Assembly: GCA_050293845.1 (NCBI GenBank) | Contig: JBNKNM010000102.1 | Span: forward strand, 1 to 18,927 | DNA from: Pseudobacteriovorax sp. | Lineage (GTDB): Bacteria; Bdellovibrionota_B; Oligoflexia; Oligoflexales; Oligoflexaceae | Reading direction: 5' to 3' | DNA: 18,927 bases | Shown here: positions 2,730-15,532 of the stretch, piece by piece | How the letters are laid out: each line of letters begins with the position of its first letter | Position numbering within the stretch: the stretch's first letter is position 1 | The notes under the pieces: generated by a model | The model's input: only the letters and a program-made list of their open reading frames with translations | Told to the model about the DNA's origin: nothing | Database searches by the model: none | Translations under genes and position numbers: made by a program

Positions 2730-3035
2730 TAAGTTTTTATGCATATTTATATCAGATGAATATGATGTGATCCTAATTATGACTGTGAGAAGTTTATCAT
2801 CCGAAAGTCGTTTGTCAACTTCAATACTTTAGATTCCATTAATGGAAAATAAGACCTATTTTAAAAGGGTATTTACTTCGTTAAAAGATTGAAGGCTTAA
2901 TTCCTTAAGAAATTTTAAGTTTGATTTATCAAAATATTTGTTTGTGTATTTACAGGCTCATCTTGCTACAAATTCGAAAAAATATGATTGTTATTATTCT
3001 GTTATCGGGTTACTCAATGGTGCATGGAGGAATGG

Positions 3036-4229
3036 ATGACACCAAATCGGGAAACAGTAGCCATTAACAGTGAGTTAGTAAACACGTTAATCTCTAGGAA
3101 GGGGATTAAGAAGGAATGGCTAGCCGCGACTCTAGGTATATCAAGAATTACCTTAAGCAGATGGGTCAATGGGCATGTAAAAACAATCAAATATCGACAT
3201 CTTCAAAAACTATCGGAGTGCCTTGAATGCTCTGTGCATCAGTTGATTTTAAAGGAGGAGAGAGGTTTTGATCTGCTGGAGAAGAACACTAAATTCTTTA
3301 ATCAGACAAACGTTCAAAATAGCTTAGCCTTGCTGGGGGATAGTGATTTAAATAGCAAGGTTATTGACCAATCAATGGCAAGCCAAGTTTCTGTTGTTTT
3401 ACGTTCTCTAGATATTGCAAGCAAACTGATACATTTAGGTTATTTAGAGCAAGCCGAGCTATTTTATCATCATGGGAGCACCATAGCGGAAAGGCTTGAG
3501 GATAAAAAATGTATCGAAAAGGCCTGCATCGTTAATCTACAGTTAAGGCTAATTGACGAGACACCGCAGCGGCTAAAAAAGTTTCTCATCCGTGAGCTAG
3601 AAACTCAATTAGTGCATAGAGAGTATTTTGTAGCTCTTCAGATAGCAACTATCGGTTTTTGGAGGTCCATTGGAGATTTTTATACCGCTAAACAAGAGTA
3701 TGCTAGCTGTGTTAATCAGTTAAGAGAAAGGGGCCAGGAAGCTCAGGAGGAGTTTGTGCGTCTAGAAGGCCTTTTATTGTTTGCAGAACTTTCCTACTGG
3801 ACGGGAGTAGGAAGGATCATTGCCCATAGTTCTAAATTGCTTGATACTATGCAGAACCCAGAGCTTTGGAAGGCCATAGGGCTTATTTGGAAGCTGCGCA
3901 GTGCGGGAGCCGATCAAGTCGCCATACTTGTAAAACAGCTCAGGGAGTTGAATACCAAACACTTCGCCATAGTAAAGTTTGCTATCGAATGCCTTTTTAT
4001 AAGTAGTCATATTAGTATCTTACAGGAAATTTGGCCATATCTTTCCCCTGTCAAGGGAGTGGGTCGACTACAAATGCTCGAAATTGAACTTATGGATCTA
4101 TATATTAATGGGGCGCGAGATGAAATAAAAAGAGAAAGAGCGAACTTTGTAATTTCTCAAGTCAGGGCTCTTGGTTTACCCAAGCGATTACCATTATTAA
4201 AGGAAAGATTTTCTGACATCTTGGTTTAA
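3036..4229 (+). CDS. XRE/Cro-family HTH transcriptional regulator with helical (TPR-like) C-terminal region
   Basis: LISRKGIKKEWLAATLGISRITLSRWVNG...LQKLSECLECSVHQL is an XRE HTH. Start moved from the track's TTG 2988 to ATG 3036 because GGAGG lies at 3026-3030. Confidence 0.8.
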   Translation: MTPNRETVAINSELVNTLISRKGIKKEWLAATLGISRITLSRWVNGHVKTIKYRHLQKLSECLECSVHQLILKEERGFDLLEKNTKFFNQTNVQNSLALLGDSDLNSKVIDQSMASQVSVVLRSLDIASKLIHLGYLEQAELFYHHGSTIAERLEDKKCIEKACIVNLQLRLIDETPQRLKKFLIRELETQLVHREYFVALQIATIGFWRSIGDFYTAKQEYASCVNQLRERGQEAQEEFVRLEGLLLFAELSYWTGVGRIIAHSSKLLDTMQNPELWKAIGLIWKLRSAGADQVAILVKQLRELNTKHFAIVKFAIECLFISSHISILQEIWPYLSPVKGVGRLQMLEIELMDLYINGARDEIKRERANFVISQVRALGLPKRLPLLKERFSDILV

Positions 4230-4271
4230 GAAGTATGGATTCGGTGATAAAATAGGGTTACGGAGAATGCT

Positions 4272-4772
4272 ATGAATTCTTACAAGTCCCCTAAGCTAAG
4301 TTTTTTTCGCCGGAAGTTTTTGATTAACCGAGAGTTTCAGTTCTGGTTTATCATGTGCTTTGTGAGTGTGGCTATTGCAGTTATCGTAGCTGTGTTTCTA
4401 GCTTCGGAATATTTTTTTTGGTATTTTACAGAACAAGGAAGAGCTGCGGGATTAATGGAGGGGGATATTTTTTTCTCTTTTCTTGATCGTCAACGTTTAG
4501 CTATGACTCAAGTCCTATTCGTCCTATCAAGTTTCTTTTTTATCAGTTTATCAATGCTCGGGTTATTATTTAGTCATCGTATCGCAGGCCCTTTATATAG
4601 ATTAGAAAGACATATGAGAGCTGTAGCTAGGGGAGATATTGCTTCACCAATAAGGTTTCGTAGTAAGGATTTCTTCAAGGAGCTTTCCAAGGCTTATAAT
4701 GAACAATATGATTATTTGAAGTATGGATTGGAACCACCTTCTGTAACGTCTAAAGATGATACTCCCAAGTAG
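4272..4772 (+). CDS. Small two-TM HAMP-domain protein
   Basis: RRKFLINREFQ N-terminus, two TM helices, then the HAMP sequence SHRIAGPLYRLERHMRAVARGD...RFRSKDFFKELSKAYN. No output domain. SD GGAG upstream. Confidence 0.85.
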   Translation: MNSYKSPKLSFFRRKFLINREFQFWFIMCFVSVAIAVIVAVFLASEYFFWYFTEQGRAAGLMEGDIFFSFLDRQRLAMTQVLFVLSSFFFISLSMLGLLFSHRIAGPLYRLERHMRAVARGDIASPIRFRSKDFFKELSKAYNEQYDYLKYGLEPPSVTSKDDTPK

Positions 4773-4781
4773 TTAGCTAGA

Positions 4782-5549
4782 TTAATAATATTGGACTTTT
4801 ATTTCTACGCGGCGATTGTGTTCTCTTCCGATTGCAGTGTTATTTGATTCTGCAGGTCTTTGATCTCCATAAGAAATGGTGTCTAGCATCATAGCAGGAA
4901 AGCCAGCATTTTCCTTTATAATTTTTGCTGTCTCCCCTGCTCGTAATGCCCCAAGCAAATTGTTATTGAACTGATGCGACTTTCTACTATCTGTGTGCCC
5001 TTCAATCAGTAACGGACGATTGATTTTTTGTAATATACGACATAAGCGGATCAAGCGTTTGCGACCCTCTCTCGTATAGCGATAACTATTAGACGCGAAG
5101 AAATGAGCCCCTATTAGCTTGATGGTGAAGCCTTTTTCATGAACCTCAGTAATCATCGATTGTCTAAGTTTTTGATTGAACTGATTATTCTTGTGGGCAA
5201 TTTTAGTGATAAGGTTTTCAACTAGATTTTTGTCACGGTCAATAGCAATATGAGGATCTTCTTTTATGAGATATTGTTTGGGACCTGGGATTTCCTTTTT
5301 TTGCCCACGAAAAGCTTTGAAAATGAAACTACCTTTTGCAATATCACCAACCTCTTGATCTATATCAATGGTTTCGGGAATTTCTCTGAATGCCTCACGA
5401 ATGGCAGCTGTTGCCCCTAGGACACGATTAGTCTTTCCTTCTTGAATCGTTCCATAGAGAACAACGAATGCAGCAAAAAGTAGAGTCATGAGATCAGCAT
5501 AACTAACAATCCAGCCTGATTTCTCTCCTGATTCATCTTCCTCTTCCAT
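4782..5549 (-). CDS. motB: Flagellar-type stator B subunit, copy 2 (MotB/OmpA_C)
   Basis: TM WIVSYADLMTLLFAAFVVLY with the conserved Asp; OmpA_C motifs IEGHTD, RA, SYGDQRP and NRRVEI. Start taken as ATG 5549 (track start TTG 5552); overlaps the end of motB1. Confidence 0.9.
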   Translation of the reverse strand: MEEEDESGEKSGWIVSYADLMTLLFAAFVVLYGTIQEGKTNRVLGATAAIREAFREIPETIDIDQEVGDIAKGSFIFKAFRGQKKEIPGPKQYLIKEDPHIAIDRDKNLVENLITKIAHKNNQFNQKLRQSMITEVHEKGFTIKLIGAHFFASNSYRYTREGRKRLIRLCRILQKINRPLLIEGHTDSRKSHQFNNNLLGALRAGETAKIIKENAGFPAMMLDTISYGDQRPAESNNTAIGREHNRRVEIKVQYY

Positions 5550-6321
5550 CAATAGCCCTCTCGAAATATTTAACTTTTATCTCAACACGGTTATTTTTTA
5601 AAGATTCCTTACGGTCGATTGGTCGCATATTGCCGTACCCTGCAATAAATAAACGCTTTTTATCTATTCCACTATCAATAAAAATGCTGCGAGTGGCCGA
5701 TGCTCTCAAAGCACTCAGCTCAAGTGGTGTATAGGAGCCAAGATTTCGTACTTCGCTGTGACCATCGATGTATATTTTTAATCGATTTTTCTTCATTTTT
5801 TCCGCAATCATTTTTATAAGCTTTGTTCCTTCGTTTGTTGGAGTGGTCTTACCTCTGGGGAAAAACACTTTGTCGATTAGTTTAAGATGAAAACCATATT
5901 CGTCGCTATCAAATTGAGTAGCATTTCTTAAACTACGAGAGAGACCATCACCTTGGACTAGGTTTTTGATCTCCATTTCTAGCTCTTGCAATTCCCTTGT
6001 TTTATCAGGAAGGATATTTTGCTGACGGTTAAATTTTTTGATCGCTGGGTTTATAGTGGAATCTCTAATAGCTTTTTCAAAGGATAATTTTCCTTGAAAA
6101 CGTTCTGCTCTTCTGATTTTTTCTGGAATTTCATCAGGAATCTCTATAAATGCCTCTCGAATTGATGAAGTTATCCCAAGAATTTCTTGAGATTTTCCTT
6201 GAGGGGTAATACCGTAAAGAACGACAAAGGCGGCAAATAATAGTGTCATGAGATCGGCATAGCTTACGATCCAACCTGAACCTTGTTCTTCCTCCTCTTC
6301 TTCACCTAAGTGTGAACTCAT
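5533..6321 (-). CDS. motB: Flagellar-type stator B subunit, copy 1 (MotB/OmpA_C)
   Basis: Same TM motif WIVSYADLMTLLFAAFVVLY; OmpA_C-like IDGHSE, LSALRA, GYGNMRP and NNRVEI. Confidence 0.9.
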   Translation of the reverse strand: MSSHLGEEEEEEQGSGWIVSYADLMTLLFAAFVVLYGITPQGKSQEILGITSSIREAFIEIPDEIPEKIRRAERFQGKLSFEKAIRDSTINPAIKKFNRQQNILPDKTRELQELEMEIKNLVQGDGLSRSLRNATQFDSDEYGFHLKLIDKVFFPRGKTTPTNEGTKLIKMIAEKMKKNRLKIYIDGHSEVRNLGSYTPLELSALRASATRSIFIDSGIDKKRLFIAGYGNMRPIDRKESLKNNRVEIKVKYFERAIDGRGR

Positions 6322-6665
6322 TTCCCTTCCAGCTTACATGTTTTTACACTAAGAATTTTTCTTGGTATCGATTCTGTATATTTTAAAGTTGAATAACGAA
6401 AAGGTACACCATTCAGCTTCTCAACCATATCGGGTTTTGCTGTGAAAAAGCACCTTTGACGACCTAATTTAAAGTTTGCAACGCAAAGGCTGACCCAGCC
6501 AGGTTCCATCATCTCATTAGCCTCGGGATTGGGAACTATATACCACTCACACTTTGTTTTTCTTTCGGGGTCACACCCTGTGAGGTAGCACCCAATAGCA
6601 AAGGAAATGGTAAAGCTACTGGCAAGAAACCGTAGTGATCTGTTACGAATCATTTTGTTACTCAT
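6318..6665 (-). CDS. Small Cys-rich lipoprotein inside the mot operon
   Basis: Basic N-region, hydrophobic stretch and lipobox LTG|C, with four further Cys in the mature part. Likely start is ATG 6665 (overlapping the motA stop) or 6653. Its stop overlaps the motB1 start (ATGA). Confidence 0.75.
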   Translation of the reverse strand: MSNKMIRNRSLRFLASSFTISFAIGCYLTGCDPERKTKCEWYIVPNPEANEMMEPGWVSLCVANFKLGRQRCFFTAKPDMVEKLNGVPFRYSTLKYTESIPRKILSVKTCKLEGK

Positions 6666-7407
6666 TTTGAGACGCGGTATCGAGATGAGCACTCAATCTT
6701 TCGCGAATAAGCTTCGGATTGATACCTGTTAGAATCCCAAGAACCCCTGTTTTAATGATTTCTCCATTACGCATGTATTCTCCCATGCGGTATTTCAATT
6801 TTTTACCCAGGGGTATAAAAACTAAGTTTGCTAAAAGAGATCCGTAAAGGGTTGTCACCAGTGCCACGGCCAAACCAGGGCCGATTTTGGTGGGGTCGGA
6901 CAGATTTGCCATAATGACAATTAGACCTATTACAGTACCAATCATGCCAAAAGCGGGAGCTGCTTCTCCCATATCTTCAAAAATCCCTCGGCCATCAGTT
7001 AATCTTTTTTTCATAATTCGTAGGTCATCACCTAAAATTTGATCAATCAACTCTGGGTCTGCTCCATCGACAGCGAGCCTTATCCCTTTTGCTAGCAAGG
7101 GATTCTCAATGATTTCCTTTTCTAGGGAAAGTATGGACTCTTTACGGGCTTTATTGGCAAGATCGATGATTTGCTCGATGAGCTGCTCAGGAGGCTCCAC
7201 AGGGCTAATCACCGTTGTCATCGCTGCTTTAACCCCGTCGGTAGCAGCGCTAAGGGGCCAGCGCATTATAGATGAGCAAACAGACCCCCCTACAACAACT
7301 ATGACACTTAAAAGGTCCCAATACATAATCAAACTGCCAGACATGATCATAACCACTATAATAGTGATGCCACCAACGACGCCTCCTAGTATAGTTGCAA
7401 GATCCAT
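6658..7407 (-). CDS. motA: Flagellar-type stator A subunit (MotA/PomA family)
   Basis: MDLATILG, ARKESILSLE, GIRLAVDG, APAFGMIGTVIGLI and GPGLAVALVTTLYG motifs; G-rich SD. Confidence 0.95.
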   Translation of the reverse strand: MDLATILGGVVGGITIIVVMIMSGSLIMYWDLLSVIVVVGGSVCSSIMRWPLSAATDGVKAAMTTVISPVEPPEQLIEQIIDLANKARKESILSLEKEIIENPLLAKGIRLAVDGADPELIDQILGDDLRIMKKRLTDGRGIFEDMGEAAPAFGMIGTVIGLIVIMANLSDPTKIGPGLAVALVTTLYGSLLANLVFIPLGKKLKYRMGEYMRNGEIIKTGVLGILTGINPKLIRERLSAHLDTASQNE

Positions 7408-7509
7408 ATCCCCCCCTTAGTCTGATCCGATCCATAATTAACTGGAAGCTGAAAAATTGATTCAGGACAGTAAAGAAGGAGTCAGGATAACTTTTCACAT
7501 CCGGTTAAA

Positions 7510-7765
7510 TCAGCCCACTAGGTACTCTGATCGTAACACATATGAAATAGGGAGTTGGGGCAAATATTTCCTAAGCTCAAGAAGCCAGATCAGGTGTAAA
7601 TCGTATGAGTTCGGGGGACATAGCTTGGTCGCAGCTGTAAAAGTCTCTTCTAGAGATGAAGCGAAAGTTCAGCTAATGTCCTCTAGTTGAATTGATGATT
7701 TTAGAAAATCCCTTCCTTTAGGTGGATGCGGCTCACCAAAGTACTTCTAGTAGGAAGTACTTTTT
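7510..7765 (+). ncRNA. Candidate structured ncRNA (family unrecognised; boundaries approximate)
   Basis: Nested stem at 7598-7701 with several G-U pairs that work only on the + strand, a second stem domain at about 7527-7593, and a downstream terminator with its longer U-tract on the + strand. Confidence 0.4.
7738..7765 (+). terminator. Intrinsic terminator, possibly bidirectional
   Basis: AAAGTACTTC-tagtag-GAAGTACTTT followed by TT. Confidence 0.7.
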
Positions 7766-7783
7766 GCATCCTGTATATTTAAT

Positions 7784-8745: not shown

Positions 8746-10764
8746 TTAGATACTAGTAGTTACAACCACTTGTATCGTAGCTGTTTCAGGGAGATCTTTA
8801 GTGATGGTAATAACATGACCCTTTCGAATGAAATCTTGAAAGGGCTTATCATCAACAAATAGAGCCCAATGAGCTTGATCTGGGTTATTAATCCCATCAA
8901 AATTAAAGCTTTTATTTTCCTTGATTACATAATTATAAGAGGCAGAAATTATTTCGTCATAGCTTAATGAGCATTCTGTTTGTATTACATTGTTAATCAA
9001 AATAAACTGGCTGGCCGTACAAGTATTATTGCTTGTGCTGACATAGAGACTGCCTGCAACCGGTTGTTGAGGAAGTGTAAATTGTTGAACCTCATCGCGA
9101 AAATCCCGGTAACTAACTTCGACAGCTTGGTTTTCACTAAAATTCTCTAATGAAAATTTAAAGAACCCATCCTCTGCATAAACAGGTATTTCTTCACCAA
9201 TTTCATTGATTTCAGCGCGAAGTTCGAAAAAACTTCCTTTGGTTTCTTCGATTATGGGGTAGGACAATCGTGGGGATCCTACAGCCAAATATATGACATT
9301 AAATATCTGACCATCTTGGGGTGGTCTTTTAAAGGTCAAGGTCGTGTCGGCTGCTGAGTAACTTGCTTGTAGGCTTTGGCCATTGTTGCTTAGAACTCTG
9401 ATATCGTGCAACTCTCTGGAATCTTCTAGGTGAAACTTATGGGGTAGGTCACCGAATTTTTTGTAAATGATAGATATCCTAGCATTTTCAGGGGGGATCT
9501 TGCGGAATACCAAGTTTCTTTGTTGAACCATGTAGTCTTCTGTGGGAAAGGCTGTACCATTGACATTGATACTTATAGTATCAATGTCAGGAGTCACTTC
9601 AAGAGGAACGTGATTCACCAAAGTATTGGGACCAAATCGATAATTGACTTTGATGACAGCATTTTCAGGAGGAGCTTCCATGAAGTATATGGATTTATTA
9701 TGGACTTGATAGGTTCCTTCATATAGCTGGCCGTTTATTGTAACAACCATAGTATTGGCTAGTGGCTGGTGGGTTAGGGGAAACTGAACCTTCATGGTGT
9801 TAAACAGGTCTCGCGAGATCTTATGGAAGGTGGACTCATAACTCGCATCACAAATGGAACCGCTAGTACCATCGCTTAGCCTAACAAGTTCATGGTAAAG
9901 GTAAGCGGGACGGAAAGCAGAAGGACAGTTCGCGGTAGAGTCGCCAGGGTTCCAATAAATCCCATAGACTCTGGCATCTTCTCCTAAGTTGCGTAGCTGA
10001 TTTAAGTGCTCGCGAATATAATCAATTCCTGCGCTATCCTCATAACCTCCAGCGCAAAGGCTACCGTCGCTGCAGTTGTCTTCATCGCTCACTACTAGGA
10101 TTCCCAGGTTGGAGTTGCTGCGGAGCCATGAGGTTGAGCAGTTTAAGGCATTCGCTATTTGGGCGAATCCGCTTTCATTCCCAGATCCATTAACTCCAAT
10201 GTCTAAAATGACGTTGGAAAAAGTCGCTTCGGGATTGTTATCACCCTTTTTGATTATTTTTGTTAAGCAACCATCCTTAGGATCGGTCGTGGTGATAGCA
10301 ATGTGCCAGTCACTTTGATTTATTTTACCAAGTAAATTAGGAAGTTGCGTGGAGAGTTTGTGTTGCTCTTCTGCCATGGAGCTAGAGTTATCAATCACAA
10401 GCAAGATATCAATGATGCCATAGTTGCGTTGAAAAAAAACCTCTTCGATCTCAGTTCCCAGAGAACCTTGGACGAGGTCTTGCCGGTGCTCAGGTCTCGT
10501 GATTTGCTGGAACTGCTTTGTTATTTGCTCACTATCCCGGCTAAACTTTATGGTCTGCTTAGTAATGCGATAGTCTGGAGTGAATTCGCTAGTAGCCTGT
10601 GATTGTTCTGTAGCTTTAAATGACTTAATAATTTTAATAGGTTTTTGCATGGATTGATCTAAATTACTTACACCAGGAGAGTTTACTCTATAATCCGCAT
10701 ATTCCACATAACAAGAAGCTATAGAAAGAACAAAAAGGATAGCAATAACATAGATCCTAGGCAT
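8746..10764 (-). CDS. vWA-domain lipoprotein with C-terminal beta-rich repeats (adhesin-like)
   Basis: Lipobox IAS|C; MIDAS motif IDILLVIDNSSSM, GSGNESG and ILVVSDEDNCS; repeated F.L...P....V..NG...F...PP....I.Y units; SD GAGGAGG. Confidence 0.8.
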   Translation of the reverse strand: MPRIYVIAILFVLSIASCYVEYADYRVNSPGVSNLDQSMQKPIKIIKSFKATEQSQATSEFTPDYRITKQTIKFSRDSEQITKQFQQITRPEHRQDLVQGSLGTEIEEVFFQRNYGIIDILLVIDNSSSMAEEQHKLSTQLPNLLGKINQSDWHIAITTTDPKDGCLTKIIKKGDNNPEATFSNVILDIGVNGSGNESGFAQIANALNCSTSWLRSNSNLGILVVSDEDNCSDGSLCAGGYEDSAGIDYIREHLNQLRNLGEDARVYGIYWNPGDSTANCPSAFRPAYLYHELVRLSDGTSGSICDASYESTFHKISRDLFNTMKVQFPLTHQPLANTMVVTINGQLYEGTYQVHNKSIYFMEAPPENAVIKVNYRFGPNTLVNHVPLEVTPDIDTISINVNGTAFPTEDYMVQQRNLVFRKIPPENARISIIYKKFGDLPHKFHLEDSRELHDIRVLSNNGQSLQASYSAADTTLTFKRPPQDGQIFNVIYLAVGSPRLSYPIIEETKGSFFELRAEINEIGEEIPVYAEDGFFKFSLENFSENQAVEVSYRDFRDEVQQFTLPQQPVAGSLYVSTSNNTCTASQFILINNVIQTECSLSYDEIISASYNYVIKENKSFNFDGINNPDQAHWALFVDDKPFQDFIRKGHVITITKDLPETATIQVVVTTSI

Positions 10765-11085: not shown

Positions 11086-12684
11086 TTACTGGATGCTGCT
11101 TTCCAATTGCTCTAAGTAGCTGTCGTAGCTCATTTCATGGAAAGTCGTACCATTATTGGATATCTCGATGAGCCGGTTCGAAACGGTACGCGCGACTTCT
11201 TGATCGTGAGTACTAAATAGGACAGTTCCTTTGTAATCAATAAGTCCGTTATTTAGAGCTGTAATGGACTCTAAATCGAGATGGTTGGTGGGATCATCTA
11301 AGATTAAGACATTAGTATTGGCGAGCATCATCTTGGCGAGCATACAACGCACTTTTTCGCCACCGGAAAGAACTTCCGCATGTTTTTTAGTATCCTCTCC
11401 AGAGAATAGCATACGCCCGAGAAAACTGCGGATAAAGTTTTCTGATTGATCGTCTGAATACTGACGTAACCAATCGATCAAATTAAGCTTACAATCAGCA
11501 AAAAAGTGATTAAAATCTTTTGGGAAAAATGACTGGCTTGTTGTGACTCCCCATCTAAATTCACCGCTATCGGCTTCTAGCTCACCCATTAATATTTTAA
11601 AGAGCACCGTAATAGCCTGTTCATTGTCCGCAAGGAATAAAGCTTTGTCTTGCTTTTGTATTTCGAAGCTAATGTCCTTTAGTACTTGCTCACCGTCCAC
11701 CATTTTTGAAATATTCTTTACTTCTAGGAGGATGTCTCCTGCTTCACGCTCCTGATCGAATTTTACGTAGGGGTATTTCCTTGAAGATATTGGCATATCT
11801 TCAAGAGTAAGTTTTTCAAGTTGCTTGCGTCTAGCTGTCGCTTGCTTAGATTTTGCGGCATTAGCGCTAAATCGGCTTATAAATGCTTCGAGCTCCTTAG
11901 CTTTGTCCTCTTTTTTCTTATTTTCGTTGGCGCGTAACTGCTGAGCTAGCTCCGAAGATTGTTTCCAAAAATCATAGTTACCCACATAGAGGGAAACTTT
12001 ACCAAAATCGATGTCTACCATGTGCGTACAAACCTTGTTAAGAAAGTGACGATCATGGGATACAACGATGACTGTATTTTCATAGTTCAATAAGAAGTGC
12101 TCCAACCAAGTGATGGCACGGGCATCAAGGTGGTTGGTCGGCTCATCCAAGAGCAATACATCTGGTTTGCCGAACAGGGCTTGTGCTAGGAGAACTTTAA
12201 CCTTTTCACTATGCTTGAGATCTTTCATGAGTTTATGGTGAAGCGACTCTACAACTCCAATACCGCTCAGTAGCGATGCTGCATTGGACTCTGCTTCCCA
12301 ACCGTCCATTTCTGCAAACTCAGCCTCGAGTTCGGCAGCACGCACTCCGTCTGCATCGCTAAAATCAGACTTAGCGTAAAGGGCATCTTTTTCTTTAATG
12401 ACTGTCATCAGTCTTTCATTACCAAGCATGACTGTTTGCAATACCTGATCATTTTCATATTGGAAATGATCTTGTTTGAGAAATGATAATCGCAGTTTAG
12501 GTGCAATATGAATGGACCCAGAAGTGGGCTCGATTTCTCCTGACAGGATATTTAGAAATGTGGACTTTCCTGCGCCGTTAGCCCCTATAACTCCGTAGCA
12601 ATTACCGGGTGTAAACTTGATGTTTACATCTTCAAATAACTTTTTGGTACTAAAAATAAGTGAGACATCTTGGATGCTTAGCAT
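11086..12684 (-). CDS. ybiT: ABC-F family ribosome-associated ATPase (YbiT/YkpA type)
   Basis: Two ABC domains and no TM segments: GANGAGKST, LLLDEPTNHLD, VSHDRHFLN, linker FISRFSANAAKSKQATARRK and LSGGEK. Confidence 0.9.
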   Translation of the reverse strand: MLSIQDVSLIFSTKKLFEDVNIKFTPGNCYGVIGANGAGKSTFLNILSGEIEPTSGSIHIAPKLRLSFLKQDHFQYENDQVLQTVMLGNERLMTVIKEKDALYAKSDFSDADGVRAAELEAEFAEMDGWEAESNAASLLSGIGVVESLHHKLMKDLKHSEKVKVLLAQALFGKPDVLLLDEPTNHLDARAITWLEHFLLNYENTVIVVSHDRHFLNKVCTHMVDIDFGKVSLYVGNYDFWKQSSELAQQLRANENKKKEDKAKELEAFISRFSANAAKSKQATARRKQLEKLTLEDMPISSRKYPYVKFDQEREAGDILLEVKNISKMVDGEQVLKDISFEIQKQDKALFLADNEQAITVLFKILMGELEADSGEFRWGVTTSQSFFPKDFNHFFADCKLNLIDWLRQYSDDQSENFIRSFLGRMLFSGEDTKKHAEVLSGGEKVRCMLAKMMLANTNVLILDDPTNHLDLESITALNNGLIDYKGTVLFSTHDQEVARTVSNRLIEISNNGTTFHEMSYDSYLEQLESSIQ

Positions 12685-13981: not shown

Positions 13982-15532
13982 CTAGGGGGCACCTAAAAGA
14001 TTGGCGCGAACAGCATTAAATCCTCCTATTTGTTGGCCACAAACAGTTGTTGAAGCATCCATTTCAGCACCTGATAAGGCCTGTAGATCGACGCATGCTG
14101 TTTGCAGCAAGCCACCGGCTCCATTAGCTGTGGGACAGTTCGTTTCATTGGCAACGATAGCTGTACCAAGTGGGTTGCAATTGCTATCGAAACTAGTTAA
14201 TCCATTCACCAGGAGAAGGGGGGCATAGCTTGTGACCTTATTAAAGGAAAGATCGAGTACCCTGAGGGTACTTTTTTGTGAAATCGCAGAGATATCCTCG
14301 ACTTCATTAAATTGAAAGCCAACTCCCGTTAGAAATTTAAGGTCTTCTATAGGGGAAATATCGACAACTTTGTTTAGATTGAGCACCAAACCGGTTAATG
14401 TTTTCATTTGTCTTAAAGAAGAAATATCGACAACATTATTGATAGCTAAATCCAATATGACAACTTGATCCAGGTAGGAGAATGAGCTGATGTCGCTAAC
14501 TCCATTACCCCTCATGAACAATCCTTTTAGATTTTCAAGGTAAGAGATGGGTTCTACATCAGTAATAGCGTTGAAATCAAGGCGTAACTCTTCCAAATTG
14601 ATAAGACTGGCTAGGGGCCAAATATTGGTTAGTCTGGGAGTATTAGGATCAGGTGAAAAAATATTATCGACAACTGCGATAGATAGATCTAGCGTCGTCT
14701 GGCTTGTTAAGAAGTCATTTGCTTCTTCGCAGGTGCGAAAACCTTGTTTTAATTTGTCAAGGGTCAGCTGGATATCTGCAGGCTCATTGTCGTAATTAAT
14801 GCAATAGTCATAGAAGGTACGTACCTGATTCCTTAAGTTACAGTATTCACGGATAGCAATAGAGGCATTAATATCCAGAGGGCAGTTTTGAGGGCTTTTT
14901 TCCAGCGTTGTTCCCAAAATATTATCGCGAAACTTGAATTCCACAAGGTTTTTGAGGTCCTTTAAAGTGATAATATCTGTAATTTTATTTGCTTCAAGGT
15001 TAAGGGAGAGAAGGTTATATAACTGTGATAGACTGGTCACATCTTCTATTTGGTTGAAACTCGCATCAAGGTTAGCGAGCGTAACCAAAGTCTGGACCGG
15101 AGAAATATCGACGATTTCATTATTGGATAAGTTTAAGGATGATAAATTGCGAAGTTTGCTGAGTGGTAATAGGTCTTTAATTCTGTTTTCACTTAAGTCA
15201 ATAACAGAAAGATTATCTAGGGTTTCTAAGGGAGTTAAATCCTGAATGTTGGACTGACTTAAATCTAATTCTTTTGCGTCTAATATAAGCCTGGCGAGAT
15301 CATCACAGTTAGTAGTGCCTGTTTTGTTTTGGAGAGCTACATAGGTGAAATTTGCTTCTTGCGAATTATCTGCTGCATTACATTTGGAAGCAAAAAAACT
15401 TATTTCTCGTTGAGAGGCATTACTCTCAGCATCTCTAATAATTTGTTCGACAGATGGTTCTGAATCATCACAACTGATCGTCAACAGATGTAGTATTGAA
15501 ACTAAAAATGCAATGAAAATAGATGTCTTCAT
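13982..15532 (-). CDS. Internalin-like leucine-rich repeat lipoprotein
   Basis: Lipobox TIS|C; 22-aa LxxLxLxxNxIxDIxPLxxL repeats in two blocks with Cys-containing caps. Confidence 0.9.
   Translation of the reverse strand: MKTSIFIAFLVSILHLLTISCDDSEPSVEQIIRDAESNASQREISFFASKCNAADNSQEANFTYVALQNKTGTTNCDDLARLILDAKELDLSQSNIQDLTPLETLDNLSVIDLSENRIKDLLPLSKLRNLSSLNLSNNEIVDISPVQTLVTLANLDASFNQIEDVTSLSQLYNLLSLNLEANKITDIITLKDLKNLVEFKFRDNILGTTLEKSPQNCPLDINASIAIREYCNLRNQVRTFYDYCINYDNEPADIQLTLDKLKQGFRTCEEANDFLTSQTTLDLSIAVVDNIFSPDPNTPRLTNIWPLASLINLEELRLDFNAITDVEPISYLENLKGLFMRGNGVSDISSFSYLDQVVILDLAINNVVDISSLRQMKTLTGLVLNLNKVVDISPIEDLKFLTGVGFQFNEVEDISAISQKSTLRVLDLSFNKVTSYAPLLLVNGLTSFDSNCNPLGTAIVANETNCPTANGAGGLLQTACVDLQALSGAEMDASTTVCGQQIGGFNAVRANLLGAP

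Follow-up and report, generated by a model that had tools for sequence, protein, structure and literature searches.

Here we describe a four-gene stator operon on contig C102 of a 6.68-Mb draft genome (G000) of Pseudobacteriovorax sp.; the window analysed is this whole contig, 18,927 bases long. Four minus-strand frames, motA, a small lipoprotein gene, motB1 and motB2, lie packed end to start (Table 1), and the junctions read from the sequence bear out the packing that a preliminary description of this DNA had claimed. From the evidence set out below we read the four genes as one operon for an additional sodium-type flagellar stator, equipped with two periplasmic anchors and a lipoprotein accessory, and we put the probability of this reading at roughly 60%.

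Table 1. Features of the stator operon and the region upstream of it.
Feature	Position	Strand	Size and product	Family or remarks
motA	6658-7407	minus	PomA-like stator A subunit, 249 amino acids	PF01618
small lipoprotein gene	6318-6665	minus	115 amino acids (111 from ATG 6653)	unnamed family linked to stator genes
motB1	5533-6321	minus	262 amino acids	transmembrane segment with Asp23, plug, diverged linker, OmpA-like domain
motB2	4782-5549	minus	255 amino acids from ATG 5549	transmembrane segment, plug, OmpA-like domain
upstream intergenic region	7408-7783	minus	376 bases	presumed site of the operon promoter

The motA stop codon, TAA, occupies 6660-6658. Translation of the lipoprotein gene could begin at ATG 6665, within an 8-base overlap with motA (ATGAGTAA), or at ATG 6653, after a 4-base gap behind the motA stop; the second option gives the form used in protein-database entry P0002, and the GTG at 6692 marks the longest open frame (6318-6692) only. 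In the bases ATGA, the stop codon of the lipoprotein gene runs into the start codon of motB1. The overlap of motB2 with the end of motB1 amounts to 17 bases from ATG 5549 and to 20 bases from the TTG at 5552, which opens the longest frame (4782-5552). A strong ribosome-binding site, GGGGGGG, precedes the motA ATG. Scans with Pfam and NCBIfam (15 proteins in all) found no flagellar family among the other 11 open reading frames of the window, in agreement with the earlier designation of the set as an orphan stator operon.

The MotA protein resembles PomA over nearly its full length. It matches Pfam MotA_ExbB (PF01618) at 97.1 bits against a cut-off of 22.9, and its residues 1-243 align without a gap to Vibrio PomA (8BRD/8BRI, E 7e-56), in keeping with the build of a stator A subunit (about 250 amino acids, four transmembrane segments and a cytoplasmic loop); the TolQ and ExbB models of NCBIfam reach only about 19 bits. 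The charged rotor-contact residues R88, K89 and E96, whose E. coli counterparts are R90 and E98, are present, and the segment ARKESILSLE, already pointed out in the preliminary description, aligns to ARKGGFLALE of PomA. These residues are kept in all 17 MotA proteins compared.

A tblastn search of the genome with the four operon proteins located two further loci with paralogs of MotA, MotB and the lipoprotein. On contig C2, motA is divergent from a motB-lipoprotein pair, and on contig C159 (L014:6252-8061) motA, motB and the lipoprotein gene follow one another in this order, the locus being truncated where the contig ends. The window MotA has threonine at the PomA positions T158, T185 and T186. 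As described in PMC10374538, all three are conserved among stators driven by sodium, and alanine takes the place of T158 and T185 in proton-driven ones. With A, B and L standing for motA, motB and the lipoprotein gene, the signature T/T/T occurs in four MotAs from A-L-B-B operons such as that of the window and in six of the divergent, C2-like type (sodium-type), and A/A/T in seven from A-B-L operons of the C159 type (proton-type). By this three-threonine signature the window stator is predicted to be of the sodium (PomA/PomB) type, and the split across the 17 MotAs suggests a dual-ion motor in the family.

The anti-phage system Zorya (ZorAB) was also considered as an identity for these genes, and was rejected. 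ZorA is a long protein with a tail domain; MotA has only 249 amino acids and no PADLOC match. On the two MotBs the ZorB models of PADLOC score 33.7 and 43.3 bits, far below the flagellar MotD model with its 106-109 bits or so; the operon is therefore not a Zorya system.

Both MotB proteins have the two expected domains, MotB1 matching MotB_plug at 42.7 bits and OmpA at 47.9 bits (Pfam) and MotB2 at 39.4 and 44.8 bits. Among solved structures, MotB1 comes closest to the MotB chains of 6YSL, 9HMF and 6YKM, and MotB2 to that of 6YSL (E 1.9e-16). The two proteins are identical at 94 of 256 positions (37%, E 9e-40), and this identity is unevenly spread. Both contain SYADLMTLLF, with a channel aspartate that is invariant in the MotB alignments, and their transmembrane segments share 22 of 23 residues in three of the four genomes that have the operon, the window's included, and 18 of 22 in the fourth (G057), in whose assembly both MotB copies contain X from N bases. 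Beyond the plug, MotB1 and MotB2 of one genome are only 25-31% identical.

Recent gene conversion was rejected as the cause of the matching transmembrane segments. The motB1 and motB2 segments of the window differ at 15 of 23 codons; 14 of these differences are synonymous and one changes the residue. Selection thus accounts for the identity. The I/L and Y/F states of the segment co-vary between the copies, with IVSY in both copies of G000 and of its congener G056, and LVSF in both copies of G074. MotB2 orthologs are more conserved (about 50-55% identity) than MotB1 orthologs (about 39-44%).

The OmpA-like domains, putative peptidoglycan binders, carry variant forms of the canonical motifs GHTD, NxxLSxxRA and NRRVE: MotB1 reads GHSE, LELSALRA and NNRVEI, and MotB2 reads GHTD, LLGALRA and NRRVEI. 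The NNRVEI of MotB1 is no sign of decay, because the same letters are read in the alignment of the solved Campylobacter MotB. Decay of one motB, an outcome for which the preliminary description had allowed, can be set aside more generally, as both frames are intact in all four genomes and the channel aspartate, the plug and the OmpA-like domain are kept in both.

We surveyed gene order by whole-genome searches in 131 genomes of the class (in this collection the whole phylum), 95 of which belong to the window's order, Oligoflexales. The order A-L-B1-B2 occurs in four of the 22 genomes of family f1, in three genera: G000 and G056, which share a genus, G074 and G057. All four frames are intact in each, and in the other three genomes the proteins are 60-74% (MotA), 62-65% (lipoprotein), 42-54% (MotB1) and 49-56% (MotB2) identical to those of the window. 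The conservation of gene order in relatives that the earlier proposal called for is thus found, in four genomes. A tree of 34 MotBs places the MotB1 proteins in one clade (support 100/99) and the MotB2 proteins in another (100/100), the two clades being sisters (100/99), which places one tandem duplication before the split of these genera.

A second family, f3, has comparable loci with other gene orders, B-B-L-A in G014, G015 and G020, B-L-A-B in G016 and B-L-A in G019. The two MotB types of f3 group with neither MotB1 nor MotB2 in the tree, and the combination of one MotA, two MotBs and a lipoprotein therefore arose at least twice in the order. Two genomes of f3 also contain orphan tandem MotB-MotB pairs (L081:482-2048 in G015 and L082:697-2263 in G014), with no MotA or lipoprotein gene nearby. 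Their members, Bx and By, are sisters of Ba and Bb, respectively, of the B-B-L-A operon of the same genomes, and in this genus (g15) the orphan pair looks like the product of a duplication as a unit. The second member of the orphan pairs now falls under the Pfam thresholds.

By homology, MotA would form an ion-driven ring that pushes on FliG; an A5B2 architecture, torque on FliG and anchoring to peptidoglycan are what the protein families lead us to expect. MotB1 and MotB2 stem from the single tandem duplication in f1, after which the channel helix and plug were kept and the periplasmic linkers and predicted peptidoglycan-binding domains diverged strongly. Both MotBs should fit the same MotA ring, because the channel helix is near-identical and the plug recognisable in each, and the shared helix together with the diverged periplasmic parts therefore points to one ion channel with two different anchors. 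These anchors could serve two alternative homodimeric stators or a mixed B1-B2 dimer, and the evidence fits both equally. The stator units in the matched solved structures all hold copies of a single B protein.

The mixed arrangement can be taken further, to an obligate stator with one MotB1 and one MotB2 per MotA pentamer, an asymmetric anchor and the lipoprotein as a third fixed component, which we consider possible but doubtful. In each of the four genomes the genes overlap or are closely packed, an arrangement compatible with equimolar synthesis; a mixed pair with near-identical transmembrane helices would fit the ring; both MotB copies are kept wherever the module occurs (4/4 genomes); and the f3-type pair of genus g15 was seemingly duplicated as a pair, with both orphan copies retained in two of two genomes. 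All of these points, however, are equally expected from separate homodimers working on the same MotA. The B-L-A locus of G019, with its single MotB, indicates that one B can suffice with such an A and L, the lipoprotein also lies beside other single-MotB stators, and the word 'heterodimer' is absent from the main text of the paper on the one-motA/two-motB operon of Aquifex aeolicus (PMC4525482). A complex prediction for the periplasmic parts of MotB1 and MotB2 with the mature lipoprotein gave an interface score (ipSAE) of 0.00 in two runs without controls and is evidence neither way.

The small protein encoded between motA and motB1 has a basic, then hydrophobic N-terminus reading MSNKMIRNRSLRFLASSFTISFAIGCYLTGC and followed by D. 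Its lipobox, LTGC, fits the general pattern [LVI][ASTVI][GAS]C. All three paralogs of the genome share this layout, with a lipobox L-x-G-C followed by aspartate, and in an alignment of 53 family members the Cys-Asp pair is nearly invariant (at least 90%), four further cysteines are invariant or nearly so, and the motifs KCEWYLVPEP and GWVSLCARNY are conserved. We therefore describe it as a predicted lipoprotein with a mature part of about 85 amino acids that starts with Cys-Asp and holds four further conserved cysteines. Aspartate at position +2 is an inner-membrane retention signal in E. coli, a rule that may not hold in the host phylum.

An AlphaFold2 model of the lipoprotein, with a mean predicted local distance difference test score (pLDDT) of 90.3, consists of the signal helix (residues 8-29) followed by a small beta-rich domain. 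Neither sequence nor fold led to a named family. The protein has no match in Pfam, NCBIfam or PADLOC, including the known stator accessory families FliL, MotX/MotY, MotE, FlgT and FlgP; Foldseek with the model returned nothing from the PDB at E <= 0.001; and VIA-align against 48,161 chains gave no Z of 5 or above, the best being 4.9 (root-mean-square deviation 3.1, 66 residues aligned), with unrelated generic OB-like or small beta-barrels as top matches. The best ESM Atlas score, 0.78, lies below lead level. A profile search of 5.8 billion proteins yielded 103 family matches among 149 candidates, none with a Pfam domain and all named 'hypothetical protein' in their source records, which are from Oligoflexus, Pseudobacteriovorax, 'Proteobacteria bacterium' and metagenomes; the cultured Pseudobacteriovorax antillogorgiicola is among the sources of a family member. 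HMMER over 1.84 billion representative proteins found 77 family clusters at E <= 0.001.

In the genomes searched, the family occurs in 81 of 131, all within the window's order (81/95, against 0/36 in the other orders). With MotB presence scored by profile at E <= 1e-25, MotB is found in 79 of the 95 genomes of the order; 78 genomes have both proteins, 13 have neither, three have the lipoprotein only and one has MotB only, counts that come from kin and are not an independent statistic. We counted a lipoprotein as linked when it lay within 1.2 kb of a MotB match. On this measure 46 of 99 lipoprotein matches are linked (28/32 in f1, 5/17 in f3, 7/22 in f16 and fewer in other families); one or more copies are linked in 37 genomes and none in 44, although links may have been missed where contigs are short. 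The linked copies are spread over five or more gene orders, among them A-B-L, divergent A / B-L, A-L-B-B, B-L-A and B-B-L-A.

Quick trees of the three proteins largely follow these locus types. In the MotA tree each of three locus types forms a single group (one change), the A-L-B-B group being without branch support; in the MotB and lipoprotein trees the A-L-B-B and A-B-L types are each a single group, and two changes are required for the divergent A / B-L type. Because the lipoprotein is kept by stator genes across gene orders and its tree groups by locus type, we read it as functionally tied to the stator and not as a chance neighbour. The suggestion that it is a dedicated partner of this operon stands in part: it goes with stators, and it is not specific to the two-MotB arrangement, because single-MotB stators also have it, including both other stator loci of this genome.

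The lipoprotein could instead be a mere passenger of the operon with an unrelated periplasmic role. Such an explanation would accommodate the 53 of 99 family members away from stator genes, the lack of a match to any known stator-accessory family and the generic small beta-barrel fold. It is hard to square with a protein that has stayed next to motB or motA in five or more gene orders, whose tree agrees with those of MotA and MotB in grouping the A-L-B-B and A-B-L types, and whose frame overlaps or abuts the neighbouring stator gene, and we judge it improbable.

The unlinked copies form a subfamily with the motif IPVCARN that adjoins an AstE/AspA-like gene. Of six IPVCARN loci (L062, L066, L067, L068, L069 and L071), five adjoin a divergently transcribed gene of about 330 amino acids, and the L062 copy of this neighbour matches AstE/AspA in Pfam. 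Phosphofructokinase-like and response-regulator-like genes, judged by their N-terminal sequences only, lie near some of these loci. At the C-terminus, some IPVCARN members are extended by a tail of about 160 amino acids (P0116; L084:2903-3694). Fused forms were considered as a clue to the partner of the lipoprotein and discarded: P0116 (266 amino acids) and the 263-amino-acid frame of L084 belong to the unlinked subfamily, and their tail is unannotated, with no MotB.

Within the stator reading, the lipoprotein may, more tentatively, be viewed as a membrane-tethered periplasmic stator accessory of the order that acts from the inner membrane. Its most likely target would be the periplasmic part of MotB, through recruitment, unplugging or anchoring. 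A bolder proposal combines this role with the mixed dimer, in a MotA5-MotB1-MotB2 heteromer with an asymmetric anchor in which the inner-membrane lipoprotein would be a new subunit or activator gating unplugging or docking, an architecture that would then have two origins in this order and one in Aquifex. We think this rather unlikely.

Flagellar genes are found elsewhere in the genome. Besides 16 MotA/ExbB-family matches, searches of G000 gave a single match to FHIPEP (FlhA), two to FliG over its full length and 11 to flagellin_N; with the stator loci, these therefore indicate one flagellar system and three stator operons. The two FliG matches lie on contigs C5 and C79 (L072 and L073) and score 140.8 and 97.3 bits, as against one FlhA, and the flagellin_N matches are spread over nine contigs. 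On contig C198 (L012:738-3232, minus strand), an operon encodes a protein with a FliG_C domain (353 or more amino acids, 25.9 bits), a divergent MotA-like protein (254 amino acids) and a MotB-like protein (220 amino acids, with plug and OmpA domains). A second FliG_C-like match is found on C80, the contig of another MotA/MotB-like pair, and these two sets may be non-flagellar rotor-stator modules.

Several observations weigh against our reading of the window operon. The best full-length NCBIfam model for MotA is PomA (NF006527), at 240.5 bits, below its equivalog cut-off of 341, which makes MotA a family member though no curated equivalog of PomA, and that for both MotBs is MotD, at 108.7 and 105.8 bits, below a cut-off of 283. 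Both MotBs depart from the SNWELSxLRA that other MotBs of these genomes keep, and MotB1 has GHSE and NNRVEI in addition. The contig offers no flagellar neighbours, a sigma-28 pattern has no match upstream of the operon, and the aligned upstream regions of the four orthologous operons contain no conserved block. With 53 of 99 members not beside a stator gene, the lipoprotein family is not exclusively stator-linked, and because the genomes compared are kin, the co-occurrence counts overstate independence.

Some of these points would also suit a MotAB-type motor that powers a different activity of the envelope (gliding, predation machinery or work at the outer membrane, for example) and has the lipoprotein for an output partner. 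The contig lacks flagellar genes, the peptidoglycan-binding motifs of both MotBs are atypical, and the 16 MotA/ExbB matches, among them MotAB-like pairs that are divergent and of which one neighbours a FliG_C-like protein, suggest that the lineage uses such motors widely. We nevertheless consider a non-flagellar motor very unlikely. MotA is a full-length PomA-like protein with the FliG-contact charges, the scores against ZorA, ZorB, TolQ and ExbB are absent or low as given above, the nearest paralogs lie in the genome's two remaining stator loci, and the presence of the lipoprotein family tracks that of MotB across the order. The idea of a role in surface motility, raised in the preliminary description, likewise found no support, the A subunit being a typical flagellar PomA-type protein.

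Around the operon, the window contains no Rfam family, and a sigma-70 scan stayed at chance level (12 sites found against 11.2 expected). Of the five sequencing runs that contain this stretch, none is listed as an RNA run. In G056 the operon is flanked by homologs of the window frames 1708-2310 and 11086-12684. Between motB2 and the first of these frames, the window carries two plus-strand genes (2988-4772), encoding a 413-amino-acid protein with an N-terminal helix-turn-helix of the Cro/C1 type and a 166-amino-acid membrane protein with a sub-threshold HAMP match. Because both are absent from that position in G056, they are not part of the stator module. A weak paralog of the membrane protein (29% over 56 amino acids) is located some 4.6 kb away from the stator locus on C2. 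Farther upstream on the minus strand are a 672-amino-acid protein (8746-10764), with a weak match of residues 115-165 to 'MIDAS family adhesin', an NCBIfam model of Bdellovibrio-type bacteria, and a 516-amino-acid leucine-rich-repeat protein (13982-15532) with internalin-like repeat matches.

Since the Aquifex operon was noted, it has been a standing question why a single MotA is paired with two MotBs in some bacteria. Here the arrangement is conserved and under selection, and has at least two independent origins in a mesophilic order with named flagellated members, so it can be tested outside a hyperthermophile. The analysis also brings to light a compact lipoprotein family without a Pfam or NCBIfam model, which its linkage to stator genes makes a candidate new periplasmic component of the motor.

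Among characterized stators, Vibrio PomA/PomB (8BRD/8BRI) shares with the window operon a gap-free MotA alignment, the residues R88, K89, E96, T158, T185 and T186, and, in both MotBs, the channel aspartate and the plug. The window operon differs in its two B subunits, in a MotA that misses the PomA equivalog cut-off and in its accessory, an unrelated small lipoprotein. MotX and MotY are the T-ring partners of PomB, and, with FliL and FlgT, belong to the periplasmic stator helpers. Several stators in one cell are a familiar situation, with three motAB pairs in Bdellovibrio bacteriovorus, MotAB and MotCD in Pseudomonas, and PomAB and MotAB in Shewanella. The genome analysed here resembles these multi-stator motors in having several stator operons for one flagellar system, two with a sodium and one with a proton signature. 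The stators of those systems each come with an A and a B of their own, whereas here one A is common to two Bs and a lipoprotein gene is present at every locus.

A literature search by title and abstract, with subscription journals outside its coverage, found no paper on Oligoflexales stators, on this lipoprotein or on a MotB heterodimer. An Oligoflexales bacterium is described as having a single flagellum, and stators are not mentioned in the accessible part of that report (PMC12865303). For an accessory protein of this kind, MotK and MotE of Cereibacter sphaeroides offer a parallel: as reported in PMC10954123, they interact with a MotB, are needed for stator function and have been proposed to recruit or activate stators. 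Like them, the lipoprotein is lineage-specific and would be periplasmic, and it may by analogy have a role in stator function. Unlike them, it is predicted to be lipid-anchored, has a mature part of about 85 amino acids rich in cysteine, and is encoded inside or directly after the stator operon; it has no sequence relation to either.

The closest parallel in gene content is the motA/motB1/motB2 operon of Aquifex aeolicus (PMC4525482), a precedent that the preliminary description had cited and that proves to be real. The lineages are unrelated and the duplications independent. The Aquifex operon as written in that paper has no gene between motA and motB, the place taken here by the lipoprotein gene, and the text available neither takes up whether the two Aquifex MotBs mix nor mentions other Aquifex stator genes, whereas the window operon is one of three stator loci (PMC4525482). 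Identity between the two Aquifex MotBs is 97% over the N-terminal and transmembrane region and 23% over the periplasmic region; either one, given an E. coli periplasmic domain, could drive the E. coli motor with sodium (PMC4525482). The window operon shows the same pattern, with near-identical transmembrane segments (22/23), periplasmic parts that lie far apart (25-31%), a MotA with R88 and E96 and a sodium-type signature.

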